Source: Diplonema japonicum (taxonomy: Eukaryota > Protista > Euglenozoa: Diplonemea). Taken from it: 64,000 bases of DNA. Position 1 is the first letter of the stretch; every line of letters starts with the position of its first letter. A program made the translations under genes and the position numbers. The stretch is from NCBI GenBank assembly GCA_964019335.1, contig OZ025754.1, positions 220,816 to 284,815 on the forward strand, in the 5' to 3' direction. The notes below the pieces were generated by a model. That model made no database searches, was not told the origin of the DNA, and was given only the letters and a program-made list of their open reading frames with translations. This document shows positions 9,878 through 64,000 of this stretch, in pieces.

Positions 9878-9920
<43 letters not shown>

Positions 9921-10367
9921 GCTGTTGCTGTCGTCCACCATGATGTTCTGAGGCTTCACGTCCCTGTGGATCCAACCCTTCCCGTGCAAGTAGGCCAGCG
10001 CCTCAGCCACCTCCCGCAAGAGCCTCACTGCCTTCTCTTGAGAGAGAGGTCCCTCCCTCTCCAGGAGCTTCTGCAGGTCCCCTCCAGTGTACAAGGGCAT
10101 CACGATGTGGAGCTCCCACTGCGTCACCCCAGGAACCAGCTGCCCTGTCGTCCCGAAGTAGTCCACACACGGGACCACATTCCTGTGCTTCAGCTGCAGC
10201 ATGTTCTCTACCTCCTTCACCCCCCTTGTGTAGTCCTCCTTCGTCGCCGCCTTCACAACCTTCATCGCGAACTCCTTCCCGTCAACCTCCCTCACAGCCA
10301 TGTAAACAGACCCCTGGCCCCCTGACCCGAGGTGCTTCCCTTTCTTGTACTTCTCAAGGTTCTGCAT
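8313..10367 (-). CDS. Ser/Thr kinase - beta-grasp-like linker - BspA-type LRR protein, paralog 1 (4 LRRs)
   Basis: GSGGQG, AMK, HRDVKPQN, DLG, GTPAFMGPD and DMWALG motifs; poly-N insert; 25-aa FLxGCTSL repeats. Start MQNL is shared with the paralogs. Confidence 0.9.
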
Positions 10368-10972
10368 TTTACGGTGTGTTCTTTTTTTATTATTATATTG
10401 TAAATCTCCACTGTGTGATGGATTTCTTCCCCCCCCCCCCCCCGTGTTGAGAGAATGAATAAAGCATAACATGGAAACGAGCAAATGCGAATTCGAAGAA
10501 AAGTAGAGAGGGGGCTGTTTGGGAATTGAGGGGGATCGTAGTACTTCGGAGTTACACATGATTGTAAAATCATTTATTTGAAAGATAATTTCATCATAAA
10601 TATTTGTAACAAAAAGAAAGAAGAATGACTTTGGTTGCTTCATAAACCGCCTCTAGCGGATGTTGCTGCCCTTCTGTGCTGAAGGATGCATGGCTGTGGG
10701 AAGGGTGGACTGCGCTCTGGTAGGTTGTTGTGCTCTGTAGTCAGGCACGAAGGGGCCGGACCACTCTTTTCTCTGTGCAGTCGGTACTGCGCATTGCCTT
10801 TCAAGTATTTCGCCTGCTCCCATGAATGTTCATCTTCAAGTGCTTACGGAACCATCTTACTTCAGGCACTGTGTACTTGCTCCACAGCACAGGGCGCTAC
10901 CATGTTGACCAGCAGTTTCTGCACAATTTCTGGCTGCGGTACCTTGCAGTCTTTCGGTATTCCGGGATCCCA

Positions 10973-39600: not shown

Positions 39601-40250
39601 TCCACGACAACCTGTAGATTGTATGGGTGGTAGTTGTTGAAGCTGGAGCCATCTTGGCTGCGCACGTAGACGTCCATGGGGCTGCCAGGAGCAGGTGGGT
39701 CTTGATCATGACGCAGCAACGACCCATAAAAGGTTCCATTGGTTATGACCCATGGTCCGCGGAGGTGCTCGGCACCTGGTTCAGGTGGAGAGATGAGTTG
39801 GGAACCGTCACGGAGAAGCACTTGGTGCAGCACGCCGCCGTAGGTTTTGGGAACTTCGACTTGCAAGGTGTTCGTTACGATGGTTACCATGTCTGAGTTG
39901 TCTGTGATGGTGATGCCGTGCACTTGACGGGGCTGCGCATAGCGACACAAGGTCACCTTGCCATTACTTGTTTGGCTGCTCATCTCAACATCAAGAAGCA
40001 CCCACCTCACACTTCCATCCGACCACGCGGCAGCACTCCTCCACTGTGCCGCCCATTCTGTCCCTTCTGTTCGAATACCCAGCACGTCTCCCTCAAACAC
40101 AGTGCCCTTCTGCACCGGTACACCGCTTCTGATGTATCGCTGTACCATGTCGCCATCCATGCCCACGATGCCTAAAACTACCAGTGGCTCGCATGTGTCT
40201 GCCGCCTTCACGAAGCACAATAGTACTAGACCTATGGCATGGATACACAT
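36696..40250 (-). CDS. Receptor kinase: YetA/PcRGLX (PL26)-like ectodomain + TM + tyrosine-kinase-like domain
   Basis: Signal peptide; GVPVQKG...WSDGSVRWVLL N-terminus and YYYMTGDNRA toroid; TM VIIGLLLCISIACAI; GEGMSG, VAVK, HLDVAARN, DMG, PVAWSPPE and DVWSFG. Confidence 0.82.
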   Translation of the reverse strand: MCIHAIGLVLLCFVKAADTCEPLVVLGIVGMDGDMVQRYIRSGVPVQKGTVFEGDVLGIRTEGTEWAAQWRSAAAWSDGSVRWVLLDVEMSSQTSNGKVTLCRYAQPRQVHGITITDNSDMVTIVTNTLQVEVPKTYGGVLHQVLLRDGSQLISPPEPGAEHLRGPWVITNGTFYGSLLRHDQDPPAPGSPMDVYVRSQDGSSFNNYHPYNLQVVVEDQNNITASVKVSGTHINADGDYEGTFITRLRFYRNGRYIKVTHTYVHTGDGTNSLLSGYGMRLPVLPSMTSTTLNGVVTAVEAELLQYSYSAYAVTNRNGSRLSRTAATLGTAGKSDGSAFVGVVLRDMARNHPKALLAEEEGIDVQLYPSSVAPWNLSNRCPTNNTNVGAQGVAKSSDYWLTFDSDELLPLALQAKAGTVMLMADPEWYSAAMGVGNFVFQEDLDSSVCKYQVGRALGVVTDFMKYNRQLFEWYGHDVYGGVRRSFKGNEIGSWTWDDEWSANAGDPLNALWVQYMRDQQRDTFVDAEAFSRHTMDLTAVHFGGYASTKSTPGTGGNSYHAVGSFHQHSCGPWGGSANLMEYIFVGGIETYYYMTGDNRAADVLYEAARFVERFRDPDEPYTCGLDVMTRAAQVFHNIPGYGALFRDTANKMLLDMPARYSERKLNSYLLEAAPALQYYYEVATASAEQLSTAKQLMFRLADDIMNRIQNPCPQFFYVAPLVFAAVHNSLNASKCRSAVTSCLQQYTHGDDVPLGALAAIPARWQDWNWSWSQAPSSPGLLWLDRQFTFNDNLLQGGHSYRMFKHIAVAAASADAKCVLREHSDTTESSSMVPLLSVIIGLLLCISIACAIKRRKKDAVEMGAVRLLNEEEVEMLPTGGISWAKLSCLEAVGEGMSGIVYKALYEVTKETVAVKEAKQTVSDNFTKEINLLCSLRQRDILTFYGWTEQDNKLYLITEYCAHGALTDFKCDISRERAALSLLGISRALAYIHDRGLVHLDVAARNVLVDDNQVFKLGDMGFMSTVGSAVWSPVPVAWSPPESFQERRIAQTTHDVWSFGCLVYEVLEGKQPFWEVGADEEGLRSIEKAIRQGSKPAKPDALSSLGELIWNKVVLSCWADSPFERCTMCEIITMLAAIEASPLVPSNNTPPSGAVPIMKGITQCSNPYVTLNVYGEPPERSESIHILL

Positions 40251-40703
40251 TAAGGGATACACCTGTAGTGGGCATCAGAAAACAATAATGTTACAAGGAA
40301 ATACAATTTTCTTTTTTGGGTCTGGTCTTCGGGGGTAAGCTGTTGGAAAAAAAAAAAAAAAATCGGGGGTCACCTGGCACTTGGGGATAGCTATGTGGGC
40401 CGGGCGCGAAGGAGGAGCAGGAGGAAGGAACCAGTTTTTTCTTCAACTCTTTTTTTGGGGAGCAGGTCAAGGGGGGAGGCAAGTATAAGTTAAGCTAATA
40501 CACTTCTTTCGTTTAACAGCCTTTCTGTTGTTCCTCCGTCAAGAGGGGAAATATCTCAAGAAAAGAGGGGCGGGGAAATGCTTGAAGGAGATGAAAAAAA
40601 ACAACCAGAAAAAGCAGGATAGATTGAAGACAAGAAAACACTTTTGGTACTCTTTTTTTCCTTTCTTTCACACGGATCTATTCTTGTCTTCCTTCTCACT
40701 ACT

Positions 40704-42319
40704 TTATTGCCTTAACTTTTCAAACTCCTCGGGGAGAGGAAAGCTCTTGTTGGCTTTGACTGCCTGAAGGGAGGTGCATCCTTCCAAGAAGCTATGGCCG
40801 ATGCTTGTGATGTTGGAAAGCGGTGTGAGATCGACAACCTGAAGGGAGGTACACCCTTCCAAGAAGTCGTAGTCGATGTTGGTGATGTTGGAAAGCGGTG
40901 GGAAATTGACGGCCTGAAGGGAGGTGCACCCTTTCAAGAACCTACCGCCGAAGCTGGTGATCTTGGAAAGCGGTGTGAGATCGACAACCTGAAGGGAGGT
41001 GCACCCTTCCAAGAAGTCGTTGTCGATGCTGGTGATGTTGGAAAGCGGTGTGAGATCGACAGCCTGAAGGGAGGTGCACCCTTTCAAGAACCAAATGCCG
41101 ATGCTGGTGATGTTGGAAAGCGGTGAAAGATCGACAACCTGAAGGGAGGTGCACCCTTCCAAGAAGCCTTGGCTGATGCTGGTGATGTTGGAAAGCGGCG
41201 CTAGATCGACAGCCTGAAGGGAGGTGCACCCATACAAGAAGTTGAAGTCGATGTGGGTGATGTTGGAAAACGGTGTGAGATCGACAGCCTGAAGGGAGGT
41301 GCACCCAAACAAGAAGCTAAAGCCGATGCTCGTGATGTTGGAAAGCTGTGCGAAATCGACAGCCTGAAGGGAGGTGCACAAAGACAAGAGGTTTTTGCCG
41401 ATGGTGATAGACCCTGGCCCTGTCACGGTGGGCAGTGAGTCGAGAGAGAAGCTGAGTGACCTCAGCCGACAAGAGGTCCTGTCTTTGTATTTGCTTGCCA
41501 GGAAGTTATCAGCGATGTTGCCCCGTACGCCCTTCAGCACCACGTGTTCAAAGCCCAACACAATGGGGACGTACCTCTCATCCACATGAACCAGGGAAGC
41601 CCATGTGAAGTCAATCACCAAGAACGGTGGACGTTCCACCAGCTTATCAAGCAACTGAAGCTCGTCGTGCTTCACCACCACCTGCATCTTTCCCATCATT
41701 CCCAAGAACCCCTCCATGCCTTCTTCCCACTCCACAACGAGGCCCTTCCTCTTCACTTCTTCCTCTGAGGTGAGCTGGCTTCCATTCTTCAAGGCTGCAA
41801 CGGGATGATGCTGATGTTGGTTCGGATCGTGGTGGTGGTCGATGTTGTTGTTCTTGTTGTTGGTCGTCATCATCATCATCGTTGTCGTCGTCATCGCAGG
41901 TGGAGTCGTCAGCACAGACAGAACCTCAGAAGCGGTCGGGCGTTTCGAAGGGTCCTCGCAGAGGAGGCGCAGCAGCAGGGTTCCCACCGACTCCCCCACG
42001 AGCTTTGGGAGGCGTCTTTCCAGCTCACCCATCACAAGGACCCGGTTCATCTTCAGGTACTTCAGAAACCACTCCCTCAGCTTCTCATCCTCCAGGACGG
42101 CGAAGCACACGGTCACCCCGAGGGCCCACATGTCCACCTTGTTGGTGTACGGACCTACAAAGTCGGGTCCCATGAAGGCGGGGGTTCCCACAACGCTGTC
42201 GGCGGTCGCTCCAGAAAAATTATGGATCATGCTGCTGCTGCTGCTGCTACCACTTGCACCAACAACAGCCCTCGACAGTCCCAGGTCAGCCAGAACGAAC
42301 CTCGTCTTCCCTTCAGAGG

Positions 42320-42356
<37 letters not shown>

Positions 42357-42812
42357 GCTGTTGCTGTCGTCCACCATGATGTTCTGAGGCTTCACGTCCC
42401 TGTGGATCCAACCCTTCCCGTGCAAGTAGGCCAGCGCCTCAGCCACCTCCCGCAAGAGCCTCACTGCCTTCTCTTGAGAGAGGGGTCCCTCCCTCTCCAG
42501 GAGCTTCTGCAGGTCCCCTCCAGTGTACAAGGGCATCACGATGTGGAGCTCCCACTGCGTCACCCCAGGAACCAGCTGCCCTGTCGTCCCGAAGTAGTCC
42601 ACACACGGGACCACATTCCTGTGCTTCAGCTGCAGCATGTTCTCTACCTCCTTCACCCCCCTTGTGTAGTCCTCCTTCGTCGCCGCCTTCACAACCTTCA
42701 TCGCGAACTCCTTCCCGTCAACCTCCCTCACAGCCATGTAAACAGACCCCTGGCCCCCTGACCCGAGGTGCTTCCCTTTCTTGTACTTCAAAAGGTTCTG
42801 CATTTCCTGCAT
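40704..42812 (-). CDS. Kinase-LRR paralog 2 (9 LRRs, linker domain absent)
   Basis: Kinase near-identical to paralog 1; nine 25-aa LRR units. Confidence 0.9.
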
Positions 42813-43245
42813 CTTTTCTTGTTTTAGTATGTTCTTTTTTTAGTAAATTCTGTGTGATGGATTTCTCCCCCCCCCCCCCCCCCAAGAGTTTTTTAAGCCC
42901 CATATTCGCTAAGTGACCCGCCCTATGTCTCAAAGGGATTACAGGGGGCTATAGGGGAAAAAATGTCAAAAATGCCCAAAGGTTCATTGAATTTTTTTTT
43001 CCAAAAAATCCATATGTCGAACATGAAAGAACGGTGAGTTCCAAGGAAGTTCCAAAAAAAATTTGGCAAAAAAAAATTTTTGGGGGCAAACCAAAATGAC
43101 CTTGGAAGTCGCCATTTTGAGTTTTGGCCATTTTTACAAACTTTTGCACCTGGGCACTTTTCCCTTTGAAAAACATGGTTAACAGGGTTCGATCCCAGAA
43201 GCCAGCATCTTCCTGACCAGTAGTTCAGCGGAAAATATTTGGAAG

Positions 43246-47294: not shown

Positions 47295-49171
47295 TTATCG
47301 CCGTAACTTTTCCAGCTCCTTGGGGAGAGGAAAGCTCTTGTTGGCTTTGACTGCCTGAAGGGAGGCGCACCCTTCCAAGAACCAATTGCCGATGCTGGTA
47401 ATATTGGAAAGCGGTGAGAGATCGACAGCCTGAAGGGAGGTGCACTCTTCCAAGAAGCTATCGCCGATGCTTGTGATGTTGGAAAGCGGTGAGAGATCGA
47501 CAGCCTGAAGGGAGCTGCACCCTTTCAAGAAGTCGTAGTCGATGCTGGTGATGTTGGAAAGCGGTGGTAAATTGACAGCCTGAAGGGAGGTGCACCCAAA
47601 CAAGAACCTCTTTCCGATGCTGGTGATGCTGGAAAGCGGCGCTAGATCGACAGCCTGAAGGGAGGTGCACCTTCCCAAGAAGCTAAAGCCGGTGCTGGTG
47701 ATGTTGGAAAGCGGTGTGAGATCGACAGCCTGAAGGGAGGTGCACCCAAACAAGAAGCTATCGCCGATGCTCGTGATGTTGGAAAGCTGTGCGAAATCGA
47801 CAGCCTGAAGGGAGGTGCACCAAGACAAGAAGCCATCGCCGATGGTGATAGACCCTGGCCCTGTCACGGTGGGCAGTGAGTCGAGAGAGAAGCTGAGTGA
47901 CCTCAGCCGACAAGAGGTCCTGTCTTTGTATTTGCTTGCCAGGAAGTTATCAGCGATGTTGCCCCGTACGCCCTTCAGCACCACGTGTACAAAGCCCATC
48001 ACAATGGGGACGTACCTCTCATCCACATGAACCAGGGAAGCCCCTGTGAAGTCAATCACCAAGATCGGTGGACGTTTCACCAGCTTATCAAGCAACTGAA
48101 GCTCGTCGTGCTTCACCACCACCTGCATCTTTCCCATCTTTCCCAAGAACCCCTCCATGCCTTCTTCCCACTCCACAACGAGGCCCTTCCTCTTCACTTC
48201 TTCCTCTTCCGAGGTGAGCTGGCTTCCATCCTTCAAGGCTGCAACAGGATGATGCTGATGCATCTTTCCCTCCTTGCCTTCTTCCCACTCCACCACCTGC
48301 ATCTTTCCCATCTTTCCCAAGAACCCATCCATGCCTTCTTCCCACTCCACAACGAGGCCCTTCCTCTTCACTTCTTCCTCTGAGGTGAGCTGGCTTCCAT
48401 CCTTCAAGGCTGCAACGGGATGCTGATGTTGGTTCGGATCGTGGTGGTGGTGGTGGTGGTCGATGTTGTTGTTCTTGTTGTTGGTGTGCTCAGAGAAGAC
48501 CTTCACCCGTCCCTTGTCTTGGAAGACAGTCTCGCTGTCGGCATCCACGAACAGATCGAAGTCGCTGCTGAAGACCTCCACCCTGCGAACCCGTCCCAGC
48601 CCGTCCTTTGCGAAGGCTTTCTCTGCCGCCACCCGAACCTCCTCCACACCCGACCCCACAGCCACAAGGAGGGGCCTCCTCCTCTCCTCACCACCGAAGT
48701 CCGCGAAGGCCAGAAGCATCATCATCATCGTTGTCGTCGTCGTCATCGCAGGTGGAGTCGTCAGCACAGACAGAACCTCAGAAGCGGTCGGGCGTTTCGA
48801 AGGGTCCTCGCAGAGGAGGCGCAGCAGCAGGGTCCCCACCGACTCCCCCATGAGCTTTGGGAGGCGCCATTCCAGCTCACCCATCACAAGGACCCGGTTC
48901 ATCTTCAGGTACTTCAGAAACCACTCCCTCAGCTTCTCATCCTCCAGGACGGCGAAGCACACGGTCACCCCGAGGGCCCACATGTCCACCTTGTTGGTGT
49001 ACGGACCTACAAAGTCGGGTCCCATGAAGGCGGGGGTTCCCACAACGCTGTCGGCGGTCGCTCCAGAAAAATTATGGATCATGCTGCTGCTGCTGCTGCT
49101 ACCACTTGCACCAACAACAGCCCTCGACAGTCCCAGGTCAGCCAGAACGAACCTCGTCTTCCCTTCAGAGG

Positions 49172-49208
<37 letters not shown>

Positions 49209-49655
49209 GCTGTTGCTGTCGTCCACCATGATGTTCTGAGGCTTCACGTCCCTGTGGATCCAACCCTTCCCGTGCAAGTAGGCCAGCGCCTCAGCCACCT
49301 CCCGCAAGAGCCTCACTGCCTTCTCTTGAGAGAGGGGTCCCTCCCTCTCCAGGAGCTTCTGCAGGTCCCCTCCAGTGTACAAGGGCATCACGATGTGGAG
49401 CTCCCACTGCGTCACCCCAGGAACCAGCTGCCCTGTCGTCCCGAAGTAGTCCACACACGGGACCACATTCCTGTGCTTCAGCTGCAGCATGTTCTCTACC
49501 TCCTTCACCCCCCTTGTGTAGTCCTCCTTCGTCGCCGCCTTCACAACCTTCATCGCAAACTCCTTCCCGTCAACCTCCCTCACAGCCATGTAAACAGACC
49601 CCTGGCCCCCTGACCCGAGGTGCTTCCCTTTCTTGTACTTCTCAAGGTTCTGCAT
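47295..49655 (-). CDS. Kinase-LRR paralog 3 (7 LRRs, duplicated linker module)
   Basis: Same kinase; HPVAALKDGSQLTSEEEVKRKGLVVEWEEGM module duplicated; seven LRR units. Confidence 0.9.
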
Positions 49656-51354
49656 TTTACGGTGTGTTCTTTTTTTTTTATTATTGTAAATCTCCACTGT
49701 GTGTTGAGAATGAAAAAAGCATAACTTGGAAGGAAACATGGAAACGAGCAAACGGGAATTCGAAGAAAAGGAGAGAGATCACAAGTTCAACGGAACGGGG
49801 AGGGATGTCAAGCATCTTGTAGAAATCTGCAACTTCGCGGTCAGTTTCTTGCTGATTGAGAATGGGGATTAACTTAGAGTGAGGTCATCCTACAGAAGGT
49901 GCGAAGGTTTTGCTCAACACAAGTTACAGATGATTGTAAAATCATTTTTTGAAGGGAAAAACACTGTTCATGGTAAGCAAATATCTTTAACCATTAAAGG
50001 ATGGGGGTTTTTGGGCAAAAAAAAGGTCACCATCGACTTTTTTATTTTCTAAAATTAAAACATCCTCGAGCATGCAACCATATAATGACGCTTGTGTAAA
50101 AGAAAATACATCACCCAGGAGGGACAAAAAACACCCCCAGACGCCCCTCAAAGGCCCTGGGAAGTGAATACAATAAGGATCTTTTTTTTTTTTTTTTTTT
50201 TTTTTTTTCACACTCAAAAGGGGTGCCAAAATGGGGCTGGACGGACGCAGATGCCTACAGGGGGTTTTGTAAGTTTGAAAACCGAAAATTCCGGATGCAA
50301 ATTTGGCTCCGCGGTGTTCTTGGTGTTCAGGCTCCCTGTCTGCCAGGGCTGGCCCACCATGGCTGTTTCACCGCCTTCTTTGGGGCCGTAGACTTTTGTT
50401 ATCTCCCTAAACTCCTTGGCGTCCGCCGTAAAATTGGTGATATTTTGATAAACAAGAGAGGTATGTATGGGGGAAAAGTGCATGCTCAGTGTTGGGGGGG
50501 GGGGGGGGGGGGGGTCCGGAATAGTGATTTTATCCGCCTCTTTTCACCCATGGGACGGAAAAGCCCCCGCCTTGCCGATCGCGATGGAAGACACGGTTTA
50601 TGGTTCCCATGCCCCACCGGATCGTCTTCTACTCCTCTTTTCACTTTTTTTTTTATTAGTAAATTAAAACTTCTTTAACAAGGCGGGAGAAAAAAAAAAT
50701 CTGGCATGCACAAAAAAGTGGTGATAAAGATTCGAGTTCGTGAATCACTTATCGATAGAGGAGAAAAAGGTCTCTTTCTTCTCTTTAATTTTTCTCTTTT
50801 TCAAACCTCCCTTTGATGATAAAATAAAAATTTAAAATTTGGTTGCCGTTCTCTTTCTTTATTTTTCCTTTTATTTTCTCGCGAACCTGATGCAAAATAT
50901 AATAAACTAGGGAGGAATGAATCTTTTCTTTTCTTTTCTTTTTTTTCGGGGGGGGCCAAGGAAGGGGGTTGGGTTGGGAGAAAGAAAATAAAGAAGAAAA
51001 GAAAAATAAAAAGAAAATAAAAGATATGAATTAAAGGGAGTCTTTGTGAGACGCCCTCTCGTACTCTTCGTCTACCTGCACCTTCCCCCTTTCTGCAGCG
51101 GTTTCTCCTCCGTTGGTGGTCTTGCCAGCCCGGCGTGAAAAAAGAAAAAAAAAAGAAAAAAATAGGGAAGGCTTCCATAGATCACCAGCTATGGAAGCCT
51201 GCCCGATAAACCCACCCGTCAGCAAACAAGCTGTAGAAGGAAAACTTCTAGTTAAGCCAAAAAGTGAAAGTAAATAAATAAGTATTAACTTAAAACCATC
51301 AGCAAGCAAACTGTAGAAGGAAAACTTCTAGTTAAACCATAAGATAAAAAATAA

Positions 51355-53076: not shown

Positions 53077-54485
53077 GTTGCCATGTCATCTGCAAACAGT
53101 GATGTAATCAGTCCAGTGTCCACACCTGCTTTGTGCAATCTTGTTGCTATGTCATCCACATAGCAGATAAAAAGCAGTGGGGAGAGGACTGTCCCTTGTG
53201 GAACTCCTTCTTCTTTTTCATAGAAGTCGCCTCATTGGTGTTCCATGAGAGGTTAATTGTGTGGAGGAGGGCTGCTCTGGCCATTGGCCCTAATTGCAGC
53301 AGCATCTCGTTGTAGATGAGGTTGATTCCAGGGCTTTTGTGCGTCTTCAGTTGTGACATTGCATGTGCCAACTCATGCTCGTTAAATTTCATTTCCGATG
53401 CGCTTGTTGCCTCTGGCATCGTGTCTGTTGTTGCTTTCTCAGACTGCCCGTTACAGGTCTTACACACATCTGCATAATGTTTCCTGAGTACATTGGCTTG
53501 CTCCGTTGCTGCGAAGATCACTTTGTTGCCTTCAATCAGCTTGCAGCTCCTGTTCTTTCCTTCAACCCTCCCATCTATCACCTTGATGCAGCTGTAAATT
53601 CGTCCCAGCCCCTCCTGTGTCATCCCTTCCACCTCCTTCTTCCACAGTGCTTCCTTCCACTCATCCACTAGTTTTTGCACCTTCTCCCTTTGCTCCTTCA
53701 CCTTCTTGACCTCTTTGTCTGTCACCTCTTCCTTCTTCCTTGCTGTTGTCTGATCGCCTTGTTCCACTCTCTGATCGCCTCCCGGATCTCCTCCGACCAC
53801 CAACACTTGCTCCACTTCTGCTTCACGGCTTGCCACTTCTGTGGGATCGTCATCTTGGCTGCCTCCAGGATTGCAGCTGTCATTCTGTAGAGTGCCTCCT
53901 GTGCTTCATTGCACCGCAGCACCTTCTTTCCCTTCGTTTCCATGTATGCTGTGTACCTGACCCAGTCTGCTTTGTTCCAGCACCACACCTTTTTTCCTGT
54001 GCCTTGCTTTTGCATTGTGCCTTCATAAGGTACTTTGATCAGGATGGGTGTGTGGTCTGAGCCACAGTTTTCGAGTAGTTTCCAGCTTGCTGCTACTCCT
54101 TGTGGGGCAATTGCTATGTCTGGACTTGACCTCTGCTTTGCTTGGATTCGTGTTGGCTGCTTGGGGTTGTTCTGAATCCACATTCCTACCTCCGCCACCC
54201 ACTGGTATAAGAGTGTGCCACCGTGGTCTGGCTGTGCTTGCAGGTCCCAGGCTTCGTGGTGAAGGTTGAAGTCTCCCACCACATATGTGTTTGCTCCACA
54301 TGGCAGCTCTGTTGCCTCAAAATCATGTTGCCTGTCATCCTCTTTTGACTTTGTGAACGATGGTCTGTACACATTTGAGATTGTCAAGTCTGCTCCATTG
54401 CCTTGTTTCACTACTACATCGATCCACTCTGTCACTTTTCCTTTGTAGGTGACACCTTGTTTTGCGATCAGTGTGTCCTTGACCA
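53077..54485 (-). pseudogene. Degenerate APE-RT LINE fragment related to 1612-5366
   Basis: SNVYRP, GDFNLHH, SSPDI, GSDH, KSPG, internal deletion, then GVPQGTVLSP...LFADDMA cut by the hAT-like TIR. Confidence 0.85.
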
Positions 54486-54514
54486 GTGTTACAACTCTGC
54501 CTCCCTCGATGGGC

Positions 54515-54735
54515 TCACTTGGAGGGGTGTGAAAAACTGGAAACCATCAACTTGAATGCGATGACCAATCTTTCTTCCATTGGTCATAGCTTCTTGGAGG
54601 GGTGTGAAAAACTAGAAACAATTGACTTGAATGCGATGCCCAATCTTTCTTCCATTGGTGATAGCTTCTTGGAGGGGTGTAAACAACTAGAAACCATCAA
54701 CTTGAATGCGTTGACCAATCTTTCTTCCATTGCTG
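54515..54735 (+). pseudogene. Isolated BspA-type LRR fragment (3 units)
   Basis: LEGCEKLETINLNAMTNLSSIG-type unit three times, 75-bp period. Confidence 0.75.
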
Positions 54736-54959
54736 GGAAATCTTTAAAAAAGAAAAAAAGAAAAGTCGGTGTTGAGAAGAAGAAAAAAAAAAAAAGAAGG
54801 GGGAGAAGAAAAGGAGGAACATTTTGAAAAAAAAACACCCTGGTGCTGAGAAACATCTTTGTGGAAAAACCAATGGAAAGCAATCCAATACCTCGATGAC
54901 ACAGACCTGCCCCCTCTGCAGCTCCACAACAACCATCTAACCTGCTGAAGTAGCATGCT

Positions 54960-55075
54960 GATCAGAAGGCGGCTGACACTTGTGATTTAATCAGAATCCC
55001 GAGATCCCATCCTGATCCCCAAATAGAGAGTGTACCATCCTGTTTCTTGTGGAAACAGAGAACCCCTCCCCACCA
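54960..55075 (-). repeat. Diverged inverted copy of part of the 6770-7970 element
   Basis: ATCAGAAGGCGGCTGA...CAGAATCCCGAGATCCCATCC is the reverse complement of sequence in ~7560-7645. Confidence 0.65.
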
Positions 55076-55418
55076 CAGCAGTCGACCAATCAGGCACAGC
55101 AGTGTGAAAAAAAAAAGCCACAGGAAAAAAAAAAAAAAAAAAAGATGCAGCAGTGTGAAGCAACCCTCCAAAAAAAAAAACAAACAAACATTTCCCCACC
55201 CTGATAACGTTTCCGAAATATAGGGTCAGTGCTGGGGACCAGGACCAGATGTCCCCAACACTGACCCTATATTTACCCACTTTCCTCACTTCTACCTACA
55301 TTTTCTACCTAGCATTTTAATTAATAACAATAAATATTCACCCACATTATTCTCCTTTTTTCTTATATTCTTTTTGCTTTTTCGATTTGAACGTAGCATC
55401 AGCTAACTACAGGGTAAA

Positions 55419-56110
55419 ATGAGAGTTACTGTCTGTCTCATGATGTGCCTTGCTTTGGCAAGGGCAGATGTCCCTGTGGACTTGGTACACCAAGTACCTG
55501 ACTTCCAACCCACTCCCTTCAAGGTGTACTCTGGGTTCCTCACGGTAAAGGGCCCCTTCAACCTCACTGATTATGACGAGCTCAGGATCCACTATCAACT
55601 TGACTGCTCTCAGAGGTCAACTCAGGACCCAGTGGTTACATGGCACCAAGGTGGCCCTGGTGGCAGCTCTATGATCGGCGGGTGGACTGAGATGGGTTAC
55701 TTCCAGGTGGCAGACTCCGGTCCCTTTGTGAACCCCCATGCATGGAACAAGAGGGCTAACATGCTGTACCTCGAGTCCCCCGCCAGGTCTAACGACCCAA
55801 TTGGTTTCTCCACCTGCTCCAGGAGAGGCGAGATCCAGAGGACCTGCCAGTGGAACGACAGGTCGCAGGCCGAAGCCTACGCACACACTCTGACTGCCTT
55901 CTTCACCACATTCCCCGAATTCAAGAACAATGAACTGTATCTCACTGGTGAGTCCTACGCAGGGCAGTACATCCCCAATATAGCATACTACATCACCACT
56001 AACATGCCCACCGCCTTCAACCTTAAGGGCATTGCCGTCGGCAACGGATGCTGGGGTGGCACCGAGAACTCTGTCGTGTGCAACGGACCTCATGCCGAGC
56101 GCAACGATGG
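55419..56110 (+). pseudogene. Serine carboxypeptidase (S10) N-terminal half, interrupted by a retroelement
   Basis: Signal peptide, YSGFL, WHQGGPGGSS, LYLESP, TGESYAGQYIP and GIAVGNGC. Similarity stops at HAERND. Confidence 0.9.
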
Positions 56111-59100
56111 CATGCAGATTACACCCGACATGGTGGCCAAGGCCCCCCACATCTGCAGCCAGAGGTGGCTCTCTAGGGTGCTTGATGAGAAGGCGCTGGA
56201 GGACCTCTTGGCGAAAGCAGATGCACGCTCGAGAGCGAGGTTGATGTCGGAGTCAATGCACTATGCGGGGGCGTGGTTGACGGCGACGCCTGACTTCTAC
56301 AACCAGCTGTTGGACAACGAGTTTGGGGCTCTGATCAAGTGGTGGTTGGGGGCTCCGGTCTACAAGCAGGGTGAGAGCTGCCACGACCCGAGGTGCAAGA
56401 CTGAGGGGATGGACGTATGGGGTGACCATGCCCAGGGATGCGACAACGCCAGGATTGCGAGGCACAACCGGGTGAAGGAGACCATCCACAGACACTGTCA
56501 GTGGGCCGGGGTGAGCGCAACGATGGAGAAGACGGGGCTGATCCCGGGGTCGTCCCAGCGCCCGGCGGACGTGTTCTTCCCAGGTGGGGTGGGGGGTTCC
56601 CGCCCAATGGCTATGGACGTGGTCATCGTGCACCCGAGGAACGAGTCTTGTGTCAACCAGGCGGCGAAGACTGCGGGGTACACAGCGGCGAAGGCGGAAC
56701 ACTACAAGCGCCAGAAGTATGAGGCGGAGCTCGCCAAGACACGCGTGGCCTTTGTACCTTTCGCGATGGAGACCTTCGGGGGGTTCGGGGAGGCAGCAGT
56801 CTACCTCACGAAGAAACTGTCCAGGAGCATAGCTGCGCGGGCTCACGGACAGAGTCTCGATACACAGGCGTGTGGTCCAAGAGGTGTCAACGGCCATGAT
56901 GAGATCGATAGCAGGGGCGCTGTTAGTCAAAGGGCCTGTACAGTTGGATCCAGGGCCCCCGGTACCGGACGGCGAAGAGGAAAAAAAGGACAACGAGGAA
57001 GCGAACAACGAACCCAACACTGAATCCAACACTGACCTCACAGAGGACTCCTTCGGCAATGAAAAAACCACCGAAGCTGAGGAGTCGTCCGAGAGGGAAG
57101 TGAAGGGACAGGGAGGCGGACCCCCAATCACGGTGGCCCACCAGCTGGATGCCCTTCTGGAGCAGACGAAGAAGGACCTGGACGCCCGAATGCAGCAGCA
57201 GCGAAAGGCGGAACCGGTGGAGGGTGGAACACAAGGGAAAGCGGGAGCAGGACTCGAAGCAGCCTCGCCGGGAGGAGAAGACACGGAGATAGCCGGAACA
57301 GGATCCAGCGAGAGGGCTGGGCAGGGAGGGGAGCTTGACCCGAAGGCCCAGGAAGATGGGAAGAGACAAGGGGCGACTGACGCTGCGGTGAACCAGACCT
57401 TGGACCAGTGTCCTAAGGGGGATACGGAGGCCCAGAGGGACTCGAACAAGGGGGACCAGAGTGCGACAACTGCTACGAGGAAGATGACCGTGAGCGAATT
57501 CTGTAGGGAACAAGCTGCGAAGAGACAGGGCGGTGGGAGGACTCTGAAGCCGCAGGCGGATGACGCCCCCGAAGGGACCAAAGAGGGCGGGAACGCACCG
57601 AGCGGAGGCAGCCAGTCGGGGCCTGACACACCTAGGGGTGGGATCCAGACGCCGGAGGGAGATCAGCTGATGGGAGTCGGGGCACCGGAAAGGGAACAGC
57701 AGGTGGAAGTAGGGGGAGACTTCGTTCAGCTTGACCCGATTGATGTGGTGATGGGCATCCCAATTCCGAGAGCGATGGTGCCACTGAGGGCGAGGCCGGG
57801 GGACCGACTGCTCAAGTTCATCATCCAGTTCGAGGGCCGGGTGGAGATCATCCTTGAAGAAGGAACGGACCCTGGAAGGGAGAGGACTGAGGAGATGCTT
57901 CTTGCGAAGGCCGAGTCGCTGGGTGTTCCACTGGAGGTGGCTATGGCTGGCCAGATTGGTATCGCTGGACTTGGATACATGATGGTAAAGCAGTACTTCG
58001 CAAGCTTGGAAGGTGGGTCGGACGGAGAGCGCCGCAGCCGCATTGTGGGTTGTGAGGTGCAGAAGTCGGAAACATACCGCGAGTTCGAGTTCCCGAGGAC
58101 GGTCCAGGATTTCCAGATCACGTATGCGTGTGGGTGTTCGGCGGTGCAACCTGTTCGTTTCAAGGGTGGCGTGCTCAAGGGGACTCTGGAAACGGCATGG
58201 AGGGTGGTCAAGTTGCAGACCCGGGGGTGCAGACACCACCCGACACCGGGGAAGGAAGGGGTAGTGGGCATTGCGGCGGGAGCCGGCGCTACCAAGGTGA
58301 CACTACGTGAGTTCTTGGAGAGGTGCGACGCAAGGATAAGGGCCCCAGTGGGAAAGGTCAAGGACCTGATCAAAGTGAAGGCGTGGGTGAGGGATGGAAG
58401 GAAGGTCACCCTCGACGTCTACGAGGGGAGGGGGCCCTGCGAGAAGGAGACGAGGCGCACTGTCCAGGACCATCTGCGGAAGATGGGTGTTGAAGAGGTC
58501 GACCTGCAGTCAGCGGTGGTGACGGTCCCGGGGTTGTTCGAGGACGTCTCCTTTGAGAGGTACCTTGGGCTGTTGGCCCGGAAGAAGGAGGAAGACAGGG
58601 AGAGGCGGCCTGAGGTGGTTGCCACGGACCTCCCCACCCTGGAAGAGCTGAAGTGGAGCAAGAAGGACAAGAAGCGGGCCCGGGCCCGATCGGCCAGTAC
58701 TGACTCGGATTGTGTGGAGGGTGGCTACATCTATCTGAAGGGTACGGGGGCGGATGGCACCGTGGTCGAAGCCAACATATGCAGGGGTGAGCTCAAGGGG
58801 ATGACCGGGCCCCAGTTCAAGTTCTTGGCGGAGCACAGGTTGATGGAAGAGCTGGGGAGCGACGACCTGGTGCGGGACACGGTCAAGGTGCGCAACAAGG
58901 AGAACTGGGCCCCGGTGAACAGTGCGGTGGCTTGGCTGCAGCTCGAGTCGGGGAGGGCACGGGTGGGGCCCATACCCCACAAGAAGAGGTCCAAAGGCTC
59001 GCTGGCCAGATAGGCCAGCGGGGGTGTGGGGGGCTGTTCTCCCCCCCCCCCCCCCCCCGCCATAGGAAGATGTGAAACTTTTTTTTTTTTTCTGAGAAAA

Positions 59101-59165
59101 AAAAAAAGGGAAAAATAAAAGAATAGGGAACAGGTGCTACAACGGCCAGGCTAGATAGAATCACT
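56111..59165 (+). mobile_element. 5'-truncated CRE/SLACS-like non-LTR retrotransposon: CCHC + REL endonuclease + long C-terminal extension
   Basis: AGAWLTATP, C...C...DVWGDHAQGC, RHNRV, RPADV, MDVVIVHP, KRQKY and PFAMETFGGFG; frameshift near 56840 into VQEVSTAMMRSIA; open to 59013. The 3' boundary is approximate. Confidence 0.88.
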
Positions 59166-59837
59166 TAGATTTTTTTTTTTTTTTCCTTTTTTTTTTTCTT
59201 TTTGTTTTTCTTTTTTTTTATTTTTTTATTTTTCTGTTTTTCTTTTTCTTTTTGAAGTGGAACCATCTCGGTCGACGTTTTTTTTTTTTTCTTTTTTCTT
59301 TTTTCTTTTGTGGTGATGTGTTTTTCCTGTTTTTGATTTTCTTCTTCCCCCGCTCTATGCTTTTTCGCATGGACATTGGTCACTCTGCCCCTTTCCCCTT
59401 TTTTGATTCTCCCTCTTTCCCTCCTAAATTTTACCCCCTGCCCCACTCATTCCTCCCTAGTATGTTTTTGAATTTGCCTCTTCTTCTTTTAAGCCTTTTT
59501 TGAGATTTTTATTTTTGAATTTTTATCATTTGGAGTTGCTTCTTCTTCTTCCCCTCTCCCTCCCATAAAGAAAAAGAGAAACCCATGCCTTCCTCCCAGG
59601 TTGGAACTTGATTGTCTGTTTTGGAATATTTTTATTTTCTCTTAAGATTTATCGTGCCTTGTGTGTCTTTTGAAGAAAAAAAAAAAAAAAAAAAACATTC
59701 TCAAGTCCCCCTTTTTATTTATTTTCTCAAGGTGACCGCAGCCACAGCCCGCAGGAGCAAGCCCGCAGCCCGCAGCACGCGCCGAGACCCACCCAACCAG
59801 GCAATCTGGTTGGGCAGTATGAATCCCCACCCCCTAG

Positions 59838-62800
59838 ATCCCCCCACCCCCCTTTAGAAAAAAAAATAATAAAATAAAAAAATCACTAGCAGAGACCGCG
59901 GTTTTGACCGCCGCTGCTACAACCACGGCCGCCCCAGCCACCCTGAACGCCGCAGCCGACCCTGCCGCCCTGATCGCCGCAACTGAGACCGCCGCAGCCG
60001 CCCCTGCCGCAGCCACGACCGCCCCTGCCGCAGCCGACCCTGCTATTGTTGAAGAGGGAAGAAAAGAGGGAGAAAAAAAGGGGTGGGTACTGGTGTATGG
60101 TGAACACCCTCCCGGGTTGAGGACGGGCCCGGCCCCTGCCTTCCCGAAAGCCCTGCTTTCAGGAAAGTGGGAGGCCCTGTCTGGGAACTCAGGGAGGGAG
60201 ACCCTCCAATACGGGTACCGGTGGGAGGGGACGAACGCCAAGGTGCGCCCCACCACGGGGATCCCAGGGGGGGCGGAGGGGTGGGTGAGGGAGGTGGCCG
60301 CCGCCGCAGGGCTCGAGGTGGTCCCCAACCAGGTACTTGTCAACAAGTACAAGTCTGGTTGTGGGATTGCCGCCCACAAGGACGACGCGAGGCTGGGACC
60401 GATTGTCCTAGTCCTCTCGTACGGAGCCGAGACCACAATGGTCATGAGGAGGGGGGACAGGGTGGCGAAATACCTGGTGCCCCCCTTCTCATGGGCATTG
60501 TTGGAAGGTGAAGCGAGACACCAGTGGACGCACCACATCCCGTCCGGGATGTCCACTGGTGTCAGGGTGTCGATCACCCTGCGTGCGGTAGGCCCCAAGC
60601 TCACCCGCACACCCCAGGAAGACCCATCCCCTGGGTTAACAGACGAACCCCCTTTTTTAGATCCCCTTTTTTGTGGGCAAGGGGGGGTGGCACTCCCAAG
60701 AGAGGATAGTGCCCCACCCGCCCCCCCTTTTTTTTTAGAACCCTCTTCGGAGGAAAACAGACCCTCTTCGGAGGAAAATAGAGAGAAAGGGGAAGAGGTG
60801 GCACTCCCGAGAGAGGGTGGTGCTCCTCCCCCCCATTTGTCCCCCCCTTTTTCATTTTTAGAGCCCTCTCCAGAGGAACCCTCCACGGAGGTAAAAAACA
60901 GACCCTCTTCGGAGGAAAAAAAGGCAGAGGGAGAGACAGCACGCCCGAGAGAAGGTAGTGCCCCTCCCTCTCTGCCCCCCATTTTTTCTGGACCCTCTAC
61001 GGAGGTGTACACCCTGGTCCCCAAGGGCCGGGGGCTTTTTTTGAGGGTGGAAGGGAAAGAAAAAAAAAAAACAAACAAGGAGGAACCTTTTTTCTTTTCA
61101 AACAACCAGGGGGACCCAGCACCCACCCCCACCGCCCGCCTAGGTGTGGTTGGGGCGGAGGCTGCGAGCGACGTGAGAGCACCACTGCACACCCTTGTGA
61201 GAAGACAGAAAAGAGCCCCCTGGATTGCCATGGGTGGCAGGGAACCTAAGCCAGCGCCCAAGCGGAAGAAGAACAGGAGGAGGCACAGGAGCGAAACGGC
61301 CCTTCAGAGGCGTCGGGAGAAGAGGACCAAGGCGAGGGAGGGGGCGAGGGAGGCTGCCAGACAGGAGAAGAAAAGGCACCGTCGTGCGAGGAAAGAAGGG
61401 AGGAGGAGGGCCCGCAGAGAGGAACACGAGGCCGCCCTGGAACAGAAGCCAGATGACCCTGCAATGGGGCTGAAGCGGACCGAGGTGGGAACGCCTGGAG
61501 CCCAACCCCTGGCACCCAGAATCCCGGCACCTGGGGCTGCAACCGGCACAAGGAGGCACCGCAGACGGACGGGACACAGCAAGGAAGGGGTGAGATGGGA
61601 GCACCTGGGGGTGTGGGCCTGGGTCGCCCTGGTCTCCCTCTTGCTGATCCCAGGGGTGAGGCAGGTGCTGGGGGCGGGCATCGGGATGGCCCCCTCCTTC
61701 CTGCATGCGGCAGTGTTGTGGAAGAGGCCGGGGAGCGACAGGAGGACCACCCGCAGGTCAAGGGTACAGGTGGGGCCCCGAGGGGATGAATGGTCCGCCG
61801 GGGAGCTCGCTTGGCTAGCAGTAGGGGGCACTCTGGTGGGAAGCACTTCAGTTTGGATAGGGGGGCTGATGTCGCTCTGGGCCATGTCGGAAGTGATGGT
61901 GTGGAAAGCTGGTGCTGACCCGACCCAGAGATTCGGACCGGTAAAGCTGAGGAAGACAAGACGCGGATCGAGAGGTCACTACCTGCCGGTGTACTTGGGC
62001 CCGCCTAGAAGCTCAAGACGCAGAAAAAAGAAGGAAGACGCCAAGCAAGCGGCGAAGGAACGAGCCGAGACGGAGGATAAGCTCTTTCAGGCCGAACACC
62101 TGGACCCCTTTGCGGACTTGACGCTGGCAGGGGACGCGTTGCAAGGAGGTGGTGACCCTCCCCCCATGGATTTGGATGATGAGCACATGGAGGCGCAGAA
62201 GGAGGGGGAAAAAGAAGGATCAGACAAACATCAATGCCGGATGGAAGACTGCTCTTTCCGCACCAGTGTGGCAAGCTGTCTAGTTAAACACCTCAATGCG
62301 GTCCACCATCATTTTGTGAAACAAGAGCAGGCGAGGAGCATGAAGGTGAACCTCTGTGGAACGTGTGCTGCGGCGTGCTCGTCGAACCAGACGCACTGTG
62401 CACTACACAGGCAGCGGAATCTGTGGAACCCCGACAAACAACCCAGTCCCGGCAAGTCAGTGGACGAGATCATGAAGAGCTTCAAGCTGACGAGGAGATC
62501 GACGGAGAAGGACGGGAACTGCATGTTCCACGCCCTGGCCGGTTCGCTCGGGGAAGCCTACGGCGACCACACCCACATCAGGAGCGAGGTTGTAGAATGG
62601 ATGAAACACCGGGAGGAGCACTATGCCCCGTTTTGCAGTGAGGGTTGGGACCGGTACTTGGAAGGGATGGGCACAGCAGCGACGTGGGGAGACCACTTGT
62701 GCCTGGCAGCCGCAGCACAAGCGTTTGGCCGCACGATACTCGTGGTTGCTGGGGGGAACAACCCAGTCCTGATGATAGGGGAGTACAACTCCGACCACGA

Positions 62801-64000
62801 GAAGGTGGTGGTGCTGGCGTACAACGGCAACCACTACGAGTATGCAGTCGGAGAGGAGGAGTCGATGATGATGCTCCTTGATGAGTCCCAATCGGTAGCT
62901 CTACAAAAGGCAGGTAAGCAACCCTCCGAGGCCCCGGGTGAGGACATCGGGGAGTGGGACATAATAGACCGTGCGATCCCTGGATACGGGAAGGCAGGGG
63001 TGTTGGACCAGATGGGGGCAAGGAACCAGCAATTCCTGTACTGTCCGGTGGCGAACTGCGCTAGGTCGAAGTGCAAAAGCACGACCCCGTTCAACTCGAC
63101 AAGGGTATGGAAGTGTCACCTGGATGGGCACCTGGAGAGTGATGAGATCCCGGAGAGCGTTCTGAGGAGACTGGACCTCGAGAGGTGCCTGGTGTGCAGG
63201 GGCTGTGTGTGGAAGGGTCAGGGGTGCCACGACGAGTGCAAAAAGGCGGTGCGAAGGGAAGGGGAATACACGACCCCCCCGCCGGCCCCGACGAGGACCG
63301 AGTTACCCAGCCTGGAAACCATAGCCGCCATGAACGTCACGACCATGGGGTCGATCCCGACGAGCCTTCAAAGACTGTGGGGGCTTACCCTTAAGCACAC
63401 TCTGGGCCGAGCGGTGAAGGACAACACAGAGGAGGCTTGGCTGCTGGTGGCGATGCTCCCCAAAGCCTGCCTGTGGAAGAAGAGGGGAGGGAAGAAGCGG
63501 GACAAGGAGACGGAGCTGAGTGTCCAGGCCAGATTGGAGGAGTGGGAGAAGGGAAATTACATGGCCCTCTGGAATAAGCTGGAATCAGGTGAGAAGGGGG
63601 GACCTAAGAACGACGAGGTCTCTAAGGTCGCCAGGGCCACGGAACTGTGCAGCAAAGGGAGGTTCTCGGCAGGAAACGCGGCGCTTGTAGCCCAGGGGCT
63701 GGCGGAAGACAATGAGGATTGCTGGAGAGCGCTGCAGAGCAAACATCCAGAGCCACTACACCCCCAATGGGACAACCCGGCGAAGACGAAGGAAGCGGTA
63801 GAAGTCTTGCCAGAAGAAGTGCTGGACGCAATCAGGGGCTTCCCGAGGGGGACTGCTGCGGGACCGCAAACCCGCAAACCCGCAAACCCGCAAACCCGCA
63901 AACCCGCAAACCCGCAAACCCGCAAACCCGCAAACCCGCAAACCCGCAAACCCGCAAACCCGCAAACCCGCAAACCCGCAAACCCGCAAACCCGCAAACC
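59838..64000 (+). CDS. CRE-like retrotransposon polyprotein: AlkB, repeats, basic tract, hydrophobic segments, C2H2 ZnF, OTU, ZnF, RT N-terminus (partial)
   Basis: Manual translation finds no stop from 59838 to the window end. AlkB NQVLVNKY..GIAAHKD..WTHHI..RVSITLR; OTU DGNCMFHAL..WGDH..NHY; CRE-type MLPKACL, LQSKHP and FPRGTAAGP. The probable ATG at 59819 is one base out of frame across a homopolymer. Confidence 0.88.
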   Translation, partial: MPPPPFRKKNNKIKKSLAETAVLTAAATTTAAPATLNAAADPAALIAATETAAAAPAAATTAPAAADPAIVEEGRKEGEKKGWVLVYGEHPPGLRTGPAPAFPKALLSGKWEALSGNSGRETLQYGYRWEGTNAKVRPTTGIPGGAEGWVREVAAAAGLEVVPNQVLVNKYKSGCGIAAHKDDARLGPIVLVLSYGAETTMVMRRGDRVAKYLVPPFSWALLEGEARHQWTHHIPSGMSTGVRVSITLRAVGPKLTRTPQEDPSPGLTDEPPFLDPLFCGQGGVALPREDSAPPAPPFFLEPSSEENRPSSEENREKGEEVALPREGGAPPPHLSPPFSFLEPSPEEPSTEVKNRPSSEEKKAEGETARPREGSAPPSLPPIFSGPSTEVYTLVPKGRGLFLRVEGKEKKKTNKEEPFFFSNNQGDPAPTPTARLGVVGAEAASDVRAPLHTLVRRQKRAPWIAMGGREPKPAPKRKKNRRRHRSETALQRRREKRTKAREGAREAARQEKKRHRRARKEGRRRARREEHEAALEQKPDDPAMGLKRTEVGTPGAQPLAPRIPAPGAATGTRRHRRRTGHSKEGVRWEHLGVWAWVALVSLLLIPGVRQVLGAGIGMAPSFLHAAVLWKRPGSDRRTTRRSRVQVGPRGDEWSAGELAWLAVGGTLVGSTSVWIGGLMSLWAMSEVMVWKAGADPTQRFGPVKLRKTRRGSRGHYLPVYLGPPRSSRRRKKKEDAKQAAKERAETEDKLFQAEHLDPFADLTLAGDALQGGGDPPPMDLDDEHMEAQKEGEKEGSDKHQCRMEDCSFRTSVASCLVKHLNAVHHHFVKQEQARSMKVNLCGTCAAACSSNQTHCALHRQRNLWNPDKQPSPGKSVDEIMKSFKLTRRSTEKDGNCMFHALAGSLGEAYGDHTHIRSEVVEWMKHREEHYAPFCSEGWDRYLEGMGTAATWGDHLCLAAAAQAFGRTILVVAGGNNPVLMIGEYNSDHEKVVVLAYNGNHYEYAVGEEESMMMLLDESQSVALQKAGKQPSEAPGEDIGEWDIIDRAIPGYGKAGVLDQMGARNQQFLYCPVANCARSKCKSTTPFNSTRVWKCHLDGHLESDEIPESVLRRLDLERCLVCRGCVWKGQGCHDECKKAVRREGEYTTPPPAPTRTELPSLETIAAMNVTTMGSIPTSLQRLWGLTLKHTLGRAVKDNTEEAWLLVAMLPKACLWKKRGGKKRDKETELSVQARLEEWEKGNYMALWNKLESGEKGGPKNDEVSKVARATELCSKGRFSAGNAALVAQGLAEDNEDCWRALQSKHPEPLHPQWDNPAKTKEAVEVLPEEVLDAIRGFPRGTAAGPQTRKPANPQTRKPANPQTRKPANPQTRKPANPQTRKPANPQTRK
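63864..64000. repeat. Perfect (CCCGCAAA)n array, telomere-like
   Basis: About 17 units, running off the window end. Confidence 0.95.

Follow-up and report, generated by a model that had tools for sequence, protein, structure and literature searches.

A CRE/SLACS-type retroelement of Diplonema japonicum whose long open reading frame combines AlkB and OTU domains

Analysis of a 64,000-nucleotide stretch of the Diplonema japonicum genome (contig OZ025754.1, positions 220,816 to 284,815, assembly GCA_964019335.1; hereafter the window) revealed a head-to-tail pair of copies of a retroelement without long terminal repeats (a non-LTR element), the downstream one cut by a short-repeat array. With high confidence, the element and its architecture are as described below. 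Somewhat less firmly, we consider it probable that this is a multicopy CRE/SLACS-type element whose open reading frame (ORF) joins an AlkB-family 2-oxoglutarate (2OG)-Fe(II) oxygenase, an OTU cysteine protease, zinc fingers, a reverse transcriptase (RT), and a restriction-like endonuclease (REL), with AlkB clearing alkyl groups from the element's own RNA or cDNA and OTU deubiquitinating its own complex.

A first-pass annotation of the window, made from the nucleotides alone, had proposed an uninterrupted plus-strand frame of more than 1300 codons holding both domains. This was borne out, with 1343 native codons open from 59838. The native frame ended in GTAAGP (63849–63866, motif check), and in translation the same frame continued without a stop from 63866 to 63998, the final 44 codons being read-through of a 17-copy 8-bp repeat array. 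The missing start and open 3' end would, we infer, explain why the ORF caller skipped this frame. The positions given for the motifs were all correct, i.e., HKD at 60375–60383, WTHHI with the distal His at 60525–60539, RVSITLR at 60564–60584, DGNC at 62511–62522, and NHY at 62829–62837, as well as the C2H2 finger; the Pro/Glu-rich repeats, the Arg/Lys tract, and the further Cys/His fingers were likewise located in the long frame (Table 1). Of the two hydrophobic stretches reported, aa 589–619 passed the Kyte-Doolittle threshold of 1.6 and the second (~61803–61907) stayed under it. Profile searches placed AlkB (PF13532) and OTU (PF02338) above their curated cut-offs, while RVT_1 had no match in the window ORF. 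The supposed CRE/SLACS-type RT N-terminus stood only as the region upstream of the RT core, the core itself being outside the window. This region (63288..63866) was recognized as pre-RT sequence because relatives continue from the matching region into RVT_1, and SLACS-annotated proteins carry its counterpart right ahead of the RT core.

The AlkB motifs (NxY, HxD, distal His, and RxxxxxR) were all intact and common to the Diplonema papillatum copies. The nearest AlkB of solved structure was human ALKBH8 (E 1.8e-9), with ALKBH5 or FTO in 0 of 37 solved hits, and the NCBI names of two D. papillatum AlkB records were also ALKBH8-like (names, not a tree). A fold search matched AlkB structures, although with a low-confidence query model (pLDDT 47); giant-virus and plant-RNA-virus AlkBs were among the matches, which at 8–22% identity and with a weak model were non-discriminating. 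Atlas feature neighbors of AlkB were virus-labelled clusters, mostly Uroviricota where the phylum was known, and phage records and IMG/VR gave no match to AlkB relatives. In the OTU domain, the catalytic Cys (aa 895) and His (aa 999) were intact and in OTU context. The nearest solved OTUs were OTUD5/OTUD3 (E ~4e-6), with viral L-protein OTUs behind (E ~0.02), and among the ten top matches looked up, those with an informative name were fungal or protist. No viral methyltransferase, helicase, or RNA-dependent RNA polymerase (RdRp) was found by Pfam in the window ORF, which is flanked by retrotransposon domains. The "RNA-virus-like" label was thus not supported as a statement of origin, the nearest solved AlkB and OTU being cellular, and judging from these comparisons the likeness to flexiviruses is probably better read as convergence than as shared origin.

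Relatives of the element were sought with aa 785–1342 in a HMMER scan, which gave 2502 hits at E ≤0.001, the 150 best of which are considered here. The six best of these were D. papillatum and D. ambulator records, and the closest named matches among those listed were annotated "SLACS 132 kDa protein." Pfam AlkB was present in one protein among 44 of the 150 scan hits and in two among 30 cluster members. In D. papillatum, KAJ9442719.1 and KAJ9464152.1 combined AlkB, OTU, and RVT_1, and KAJ9446222.1 combined AlkB and OTU; the last, named a tRNA methyltransferase, is a piece of the element and its annotation can be corrected. OTU scores in the diverged D. papillatum copies were just below the curated cut-off, with Cys and His kept. 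Two further records (KAJ9439003.1 and KAJ9464156.1) joined an RT to a USP domain (PF00443, E ~1e-7) about 900 aa after the REL, and the Cys, His, and Asp boxes of USP were visible in the D. papillatum sequence. Taken together, the records imply one D. papillatum element of ~3800 aa with AlkB, OTU, RT, REL, and USP. A two-sequence AlkB profile run against proteins of 306–2000 aa returned 5 of 7989 scored, all from D. papillatum, and one of these joined the same AlkB to a second subfamily. The word-based AlkB search of 762–2428-aa proteins returned 0 of 2132, a sensitivity miss, as relatives of that size were found by the profile; the region from OTU to pre-RT, compared with proteins above 2428 aa, gave one unrelated match among 6533 candidates. 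An upstream OTU occurred in 15 of 28 proteins with more than 300 aa ahead of the pre-RT region (redundant copies counted). AlkB was 39% identical across two species with all metal and 2OG ligands kept, and the 530-aa linker had no match. The presence of AlkB and OTU in the one ORF of a REL-type (CRE/SLACS) retroelement, as first proposed, was therefore supported: in-frame stops between the domains did not occur (the frame is open), and the linkage recurred in other copies and in a second species rather than being a one-off AlkB capture. The element is thus real and conserved across at least two diplonemid species, and it exceeds the first-pass description in size and modularity.

The 3' part of the element could be followed in the upstream, 5'-truncated copy. 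Neither this REL-bearing copy nor the long C-terminal tail had been noticed in the first-pass annotation. Its region 56109..56846 was 37–40% identical to the REL regions of relatives. The spacing of the RHN...E...PxD...D core fitted a published consensus (PMC12857005), the CCHC knuckle was matched only with loosened spacing, and Pfam gave no match in the REL/knuckle region. A 726-codon frame (56833–59013) follows the REL. Two extra bases at 56846, absent from the window copy, were present in three of four runs (the fourth had no cover), and reading through this break with X gave 968 aa without a stop, indicating that the tail belongs to the single ORF of the element. No Pfam, atlas, relative, or fold match was obtained for the tail, whose single-sequence model was poor (pLDDT 39); a suspected ubiquitin-like fold of the final 80 residues found no support and was dropped. 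The A20 run at 59676–59695 may be the poly(A) tail of the upstream copy, long A runs being common in the window. No target-site duplication was identified at the element, in a region partly masked in the run comparison.

The stretch was found in part in 19 of 24 listed sequencing runs, and 12 of 24 held at least half of the sampled words; these 12 came from five studies, one possibly the window's own source. Run contigs were compared with the window for seven of the 24, and run X13 (share 0.30) was left out for covering only 6 of 30 bins of 58700–60700. No RNA run among those listed carried the stretch. In X1, depth was 2004–2701 on long contigs of 56109–63860 vs. 174 on the neighboring peptidase gene (~12–16x), and in X4 it was 722–1020 vs. 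19 (38–53x); contig depth is not copy number, and these values are read here as "multicopy" only. Depth was similar along the unit in X1, X2, and X4. A loose end before 56109 in all four runs indicated that other copies continue upstream. In X2, one contig extended 1147 nt beyond 63860 and another 218 nt ahead of 56109; with an assumed 30-nt overlap the gap amounts to 445 codons, which places two landmarks 474 aa apart, compared to 460–480 aa in three relatives. On this basis, the element unit is estimated at ~9.1 kb with a single ORF of ~2750 aa. In X6, depth at 59300–59640 reached up to 1428 vs. 26–67 over the AlkB region, a pattern that numerous 5'-truncated copies, or else a short repeat of its own, would produce.

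Table 1. Features of the two element copies and of their borders in the window.
Feature	Position	Strand	Evidence or remark
Serine carboxypeptidase (S10) gene, broken off at junction	55419..56108	+	PF00450, E 7.5e-46, 183/420 positions
Upstream, 5'-truncated copy: post-RT region, CCHC knuckle, REL endonuclease core (56379-56618)	56109..56846	+	
C-terminal tail, ~720 aa	56847..59013	+	Same ORF as REL in other copies
Likely 3' untranslated region (UTR) of upstream copy	59014..59695	+	Ends in A20 run
5' segment of downstream copy	59730..59857	+	Loose end in 3/4 runs; inference
Candidate 41-nt GT-AG intron	59817-59857	+	Pyrimidine tract; would join ATG frame to long ORF
5' half of element ORF	59838..63866	+	1343 codons without stop; cut just before RT core
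AlkB-family 2OG-Fe(II) oxygenase domain	60183..60584	+	PF13532, aa 116-249, E 1.5e-13
Pro/Glu-rich internal repeats	60686..60988	+	Self-match 69% over 198 nt; 21-nt tandem 60740-60782
Arg/Lys-rich tract	61260..61430	+	Sequence; similar tract after AlkB in D. papillatum copies
Hydrophobic, membrane-segment-like stretch	61602..61694	+	Hydropathy scan
C2H2-like zinc finger ahead of OTU	62235..62306	+	Aligned in D. papillatum
OTU cysteine protease domain	62511..62837	+	PF02338, aa 892-997, E 3.3e-12
Two further Cys/His clusters	63042..63239	+	Common to relatives
Conserved region directly upstream of RT core	63288..63866	+	40-48% identity to D. papillatum and D. ambulator proteins
Perfect (CCGCAAAC)n array, 17 copies, cutting the element	63864..64000	.	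3-nt overlap with element

The start of the ORF does not lie in the 59838 frame, as no in-frame ATG precedes codon 201. The ATG-bearing sequence that other copies carry just upstream of 59730, the same in three of four runs, was absent from the window, so the downstream copy is probably without its first codons. The frame of that ATG meets a stop at 59875 in the window copy. Splicing at the intron listed in Table 1 is a candidate solution only, since an open join was obtained from 8 of the 30 GT-AG pairs tried. Equally possible, within the A9 run, is a difference of one base or a ribosomal frameshift; the C and A runs at 59840–59885 were masked in the run comparison, where frameshift or indel and splicing are not separable. 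Between the D. papillatum models, the residues immediately before AlkB vary, a hint of splicing there too.

In a tree of the pre-RT region (87 rows, built by a quick tree search, with no named or trypanosomatid CRE reference and with P0004 and P0008 left out), the closest partner of the window copy was D. ambulator (SH-aLRT 96), and the two D. papillatum subfamilies joined this pair next (94). One change parted eight OTU-labelled rows from eleven OTU-less rows, with a support of only 79; the OTU label of D. ambulator was assigned because an OTU piece and an RT piece share a transcript cluster name. The eight N-terminal element OTUs did not group with one another in a free OTU tree (48 rows, near-copies dropped), and a constraint keeping them as one group was not rejected (p-AU 0.75). 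OTU was present in all eight sub-lineages examined and AlkB in the Diplonema ones only. An older single gain of OTU and a later gain of AlkB in the Diplonema branch would be allowed by these trees, rather than shown by them. The region after the REL appears to be a swappable slot, filled by USP in D. papillatum, by a second OTU in two relatives, and by an uncharacterized tail here.

Placement in the CRE clade rests on NCBI names and motifs. As in SLACS, CZAR, and CRE1/2 (PMC12278014), the ORF is single, zinc fingers are N-terminal, and the REL is C-terminal with a CCHC knuckle (both at 56379–56618); the RT is outside the window but present in relatives matching both flanks, and the gap length fits. 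Internal repeats, tandem arrangement, and a possible poly(A) end are further shared traits (PMC12278014). Unlike in that clade, the ORF of ~2750 aa is more than twice the size of a 132-kDa protein, with AlkB, a hydrophobic segment, and OTU in front and a long tail after the REL, and the main text of the CRE survey has no occurrence of "OTU," "AlkB," or "2OG" (PMC12278014). Unlike SLACS, CZAR, and CRE1, the element shows no spliced-leader sequence at the window junctions: a 19-nt leader motif had no match in the window at up to three mismatches, which bears on this locus only. Rfam gave 19 weak matches in 54000–64000, all below the gathering score.

Other systems share single traits with the element. 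The fungal, telomere-associated CRE-group elements MoTeR, FoTeR, and Cnl1 also combine RT and REL, occur as tandem and truncated copies, and have, downstream of element sequence, a short repeat that is C-rich on the sense strand; however, their repeat follows the true 3' end, whereas the array here follows an internal break, the junction between the two window copies lacks such a repeat, and their ORFs are ~1150–1180 aa, with no AlkB or protease domain given in the text covered (PMC12857005). A Phalaenopsis Gypsy element likewise has an AlkB-family oxygenase fixed beside an R/K-rich patch, but it is an LTR element with a separate paALKBH5-like ORF2 of demonstrated N6-methyladenosine (m6A) activity, and "OTU" does not occur in the text covered (PMC9289625). 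Ubiquitin/SUMO-type cysteine proteases are fused to transposition machinery in NeSL and Utopia-1_TSP (N-terminal Ulp1) and in Ginger1 and Helentron (OTU) (PMC4640811; PMC2836005; PMC6431247; PMC4067079), although the former carry Ulp1 rather than OTU, the latter are DNA transposons, and the passages covered give AlkB for none. The replicase polyprotein of flexiviruses, likewise RNA-based replicons, has AlkB and then OTU (PMC544882); in contrast, the element has no methyltransferase, helicase, or RdRp, its domains are far apart, and its nearest sequence relatives are cellular. The literature also records a USP on a Trichomonas transposase and SLACS-like ORFs in D. papillatum, the latter without a domain analysis in the passages covered. 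The assertion that each domain was known singly in non-LTR elements could not be confirmed in these sources, where the AlkB carrier is an LTR element and the OTU carriers are DNA transposons. Neither AlkB nor OTU was reported from CRE-group elements or from non-LTR elements of other kinds in the literature searched, which excluded subscription journals, Repbase, and Dfam; their combination in a non-LTR element thus appears to be unreported in print, each domain having precedents in other transposons.

REL elements move by target-primed reverse transcription, in which the REL nicks the target and the RT copies the bound RNA, and non-LTR element proteins prefer and bind the RNA encoding them. 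By analogy, the element would copy itself in this way, and since such proteins bind their own RNA, AlkB with its adjoining basic tract may act on the RNA of the element or on its new cDNA. There it could reverse m1A-, m3C-, or etheno-type lesions that would stop the RT on a 9-kb template, a role suggested by the in vitro DNA repair that ALKBH8-like enzymes carry out in every group concerned, i.e., bacteria, protozoa, and mimivirus (PMC4051686). OTU, together with any USP, may shield the large ribonucleoprotein from degradation driven by ubiquitin or strip ubiquitin from the target where it is nicked; ubiquitin is the proposed target because USP, of another fold, or a second OTU recurs after the REL.

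The recurrence of USP or a second OTU after the REL also favors ubiquitin over a single cleavage site, which makes it unlikely that OTU is mainly a processing protease that separates the zinc finger-RT-REL portion from an N-terminal portion bound to a membrane. Such a role would agree with the hydropathy scan, which placed a hydrophobic segment upstream of OTU in 7 of 7 OTU-bearing proteins vs. 1 of 5 OTU-less relatives, with the position of OTU at the border of the accessory and core parts, and with the self-cleavage proposed for Helentron OTUs (PMC4067079); processing and ubiquitin removal can also coexist. Demethylation of another kind, with AlkB as an anti-silencing eraser of m6A on element RNA or of a modified base in target DNA, has a precedent in the orchid Gypsy AlkB, which has m6A demethylase activity in vitro (PMC9289625). 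That enzyme is ALKBH5-like, whereas no solved hit here was ALKBH5 or FTO and the best was ALKBH8, and we regard an eraser role as improbable.

Joint capture of AlkB and OTU from an RNA virus replicase would account for their shared order in flexiviruses (PMC544882), the viral AlkBs (including those of plant RNA viruses) in the fold search, and the virus-labelled atlas neighbors. We consider it very unlikely, as the sequence neighbors are cellular and the viral fold matches came from a weak model; moreover, the ~640 aa between the domains and their different ranges (OTU in eight sub-lineages, AlkB in Diplonema only) suggest separate gains. The least credible explanation is that AlkB is passive cargo or the arrangement an assembly chimera. 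The broken state of both window copies, the repeat at the window end, and the lack of a listed contig bridging AlkB and OTU would fit it, but a second species has the domains in the same order, at 39% identity and with the ligands kept, and the open frame and the similar depth across the unit in X1, X2, and X4 also oppose it.

Among 61 listed coding variants, none was a stop, and listed indels were +9, −12, and +3 inside the 5' ORF half and −1 and +2 in the 3' UTR. AlkB variants were synonymous in 17 of 34 cases, compared to an expected 0.26 (all changes; p 0.002) or 0.34 (transitions; p 0.03). Several observations nevertheless weigh against the preferred reading. Listed variants elsewhere than in AlkB were synonymous in only 6 of 27 cases, the rough ratio of 0.34–0.50 was moderate only, and since the variants come from the best-supported rows (40 of 206 and 40 of 51), counting the synonymous ones does not give an unbiased dN/dS; one variant contig, from X10, alters the last Arg of RxxxxxR (60583). 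Both copies in the window are broken, no listed contig spans AlkB to OTU (adjoining pieces cover both), the RT core of the D. japonicum element is a predicted one, and the first in-frame ATG, at 60438, is downstream of the AlkB HxD. In D. papillatum the records represent gene models whose introns are predicted, and AlkB, OTU, RT, and USP occur together in no single record, their union being one of overlapping, near-identical models. Finally, four ENA clusters have OTU before the RT with no detectable AlkB (two of them with the second OTU after the REL), indicating that AlkB is not required for transposition.

Besides the window frame, the (CCGCAAAC)n read-through terminates four models of D. 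papillatum at three further sites, so that P0003, P0155, P0008, P0157, and the window together have copies cut at four internal sites in two species. The repeat is C-rich on the element sense strand, and in the D. papillatum models its short arrays give way to other sequence. It may represent either the telomere repeat of diplonemids or another element's end, its polarity being unexplained. Healing by telomerase with the G-rich strand was set aside because the polarity does not match if the genes to the left are centromere-side. The host telomere repeat was not found in the literature covered, which may lack the section on repeats of PMC10161547. Eleven metagenome loci with the 8-bp repeat were uninformative, none being similar to the element or window beyond the repeat.

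Further observations concern the relatives. A third AlkB variant, in P0197 (DIPPA_14024, aa 1314–1439), is 79% identical to the D. papillatum element AlkB and occupies the end of a gene model for an unrelated membrane protein. In P0196 (DIPPA_31097), the gene model attaches a tyrosine-recombinase-like ORF (aa 1–534) to the D. papillatum element at its 5' end; this ORF had no Pfam hit and by eye is presumably TATE/DIRS-like, and the fusion suggests that tyrosine-recombinase and REL element types lie side by side. The CRE-type relatives P0060, P0102, P0070, P0117, and P0006 jointly carry MLLE, Prim-Pol, Tudor-like, and CCCH finger add-ons; the poly(A)-binding-protein MLLE domain follows the REL (E 5e-13 and 3e-12), and the Prim-Pol is N-terminal (E 6e-5).

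The rest of the window consists of long, mostly same-strand genes (kinase-LRR repeats, calpain, SAS-6, and WD40). The upstream element copy begins at 56109 in mid-frame of the serine carboxypeptidase gene, the 3' part of which was not seen downstream of the element within the window. Three near-identical kinase genes on the minus strand (8313–10652, 40704–42839, and 47295–49778) end in BspA-type 25-aa leucine-rich repeats (LRRs), and LRR-related DNA at 54518–54732 was extremely repeated in the runs. Also on the minus strand are two decayed APE/RT non-LTR elements of another group (1432–3189 and 53147–54546; Pfam RVT_1 E 2e-25, endonuclease E 7e-15) and a 1192-aa frame (36696–40274) joining a PcRGLX-like carbohydrate-lyase region to a protein kinase domain.

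As a rule, REL-type non-LTR elements are compact. As a tentative and broader proposal, which we hold to be possible although somewhat doubtful, diplonemids may harbor an undescribed lineage of giant CRE-group elements (ORFs of ~2750–3800 aa) that resemble RNA virus polyproteins, with a viral counter-defense kit arrived at convergently under restriction by RNA modification and ubiquitin, and tied to (CCGCAAAC)n as the host telomere. If true, such elements would place an RNA-repair oxygenase, a membrane segment, and a protease before the RT, and after the endonuclease a slot in which one deubiquitinase can replace another (USP or second OTU). To our knowledge, little is known about transposon control in diplonemids, which are early-branching eukaryotes; the retention of AlkB across species and the repeated gain of deubiquitinases of two folds would point to RNA-base modification and ubiquitin as pressures on retrotransposition. 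An older proposal that transposon-borne OTU, Ulp1, and USP domains act in transposition (PMC2836005) would also become directly testable, as the domains are small and D. papillatum is described as the model diplonemid (PMC10161547).

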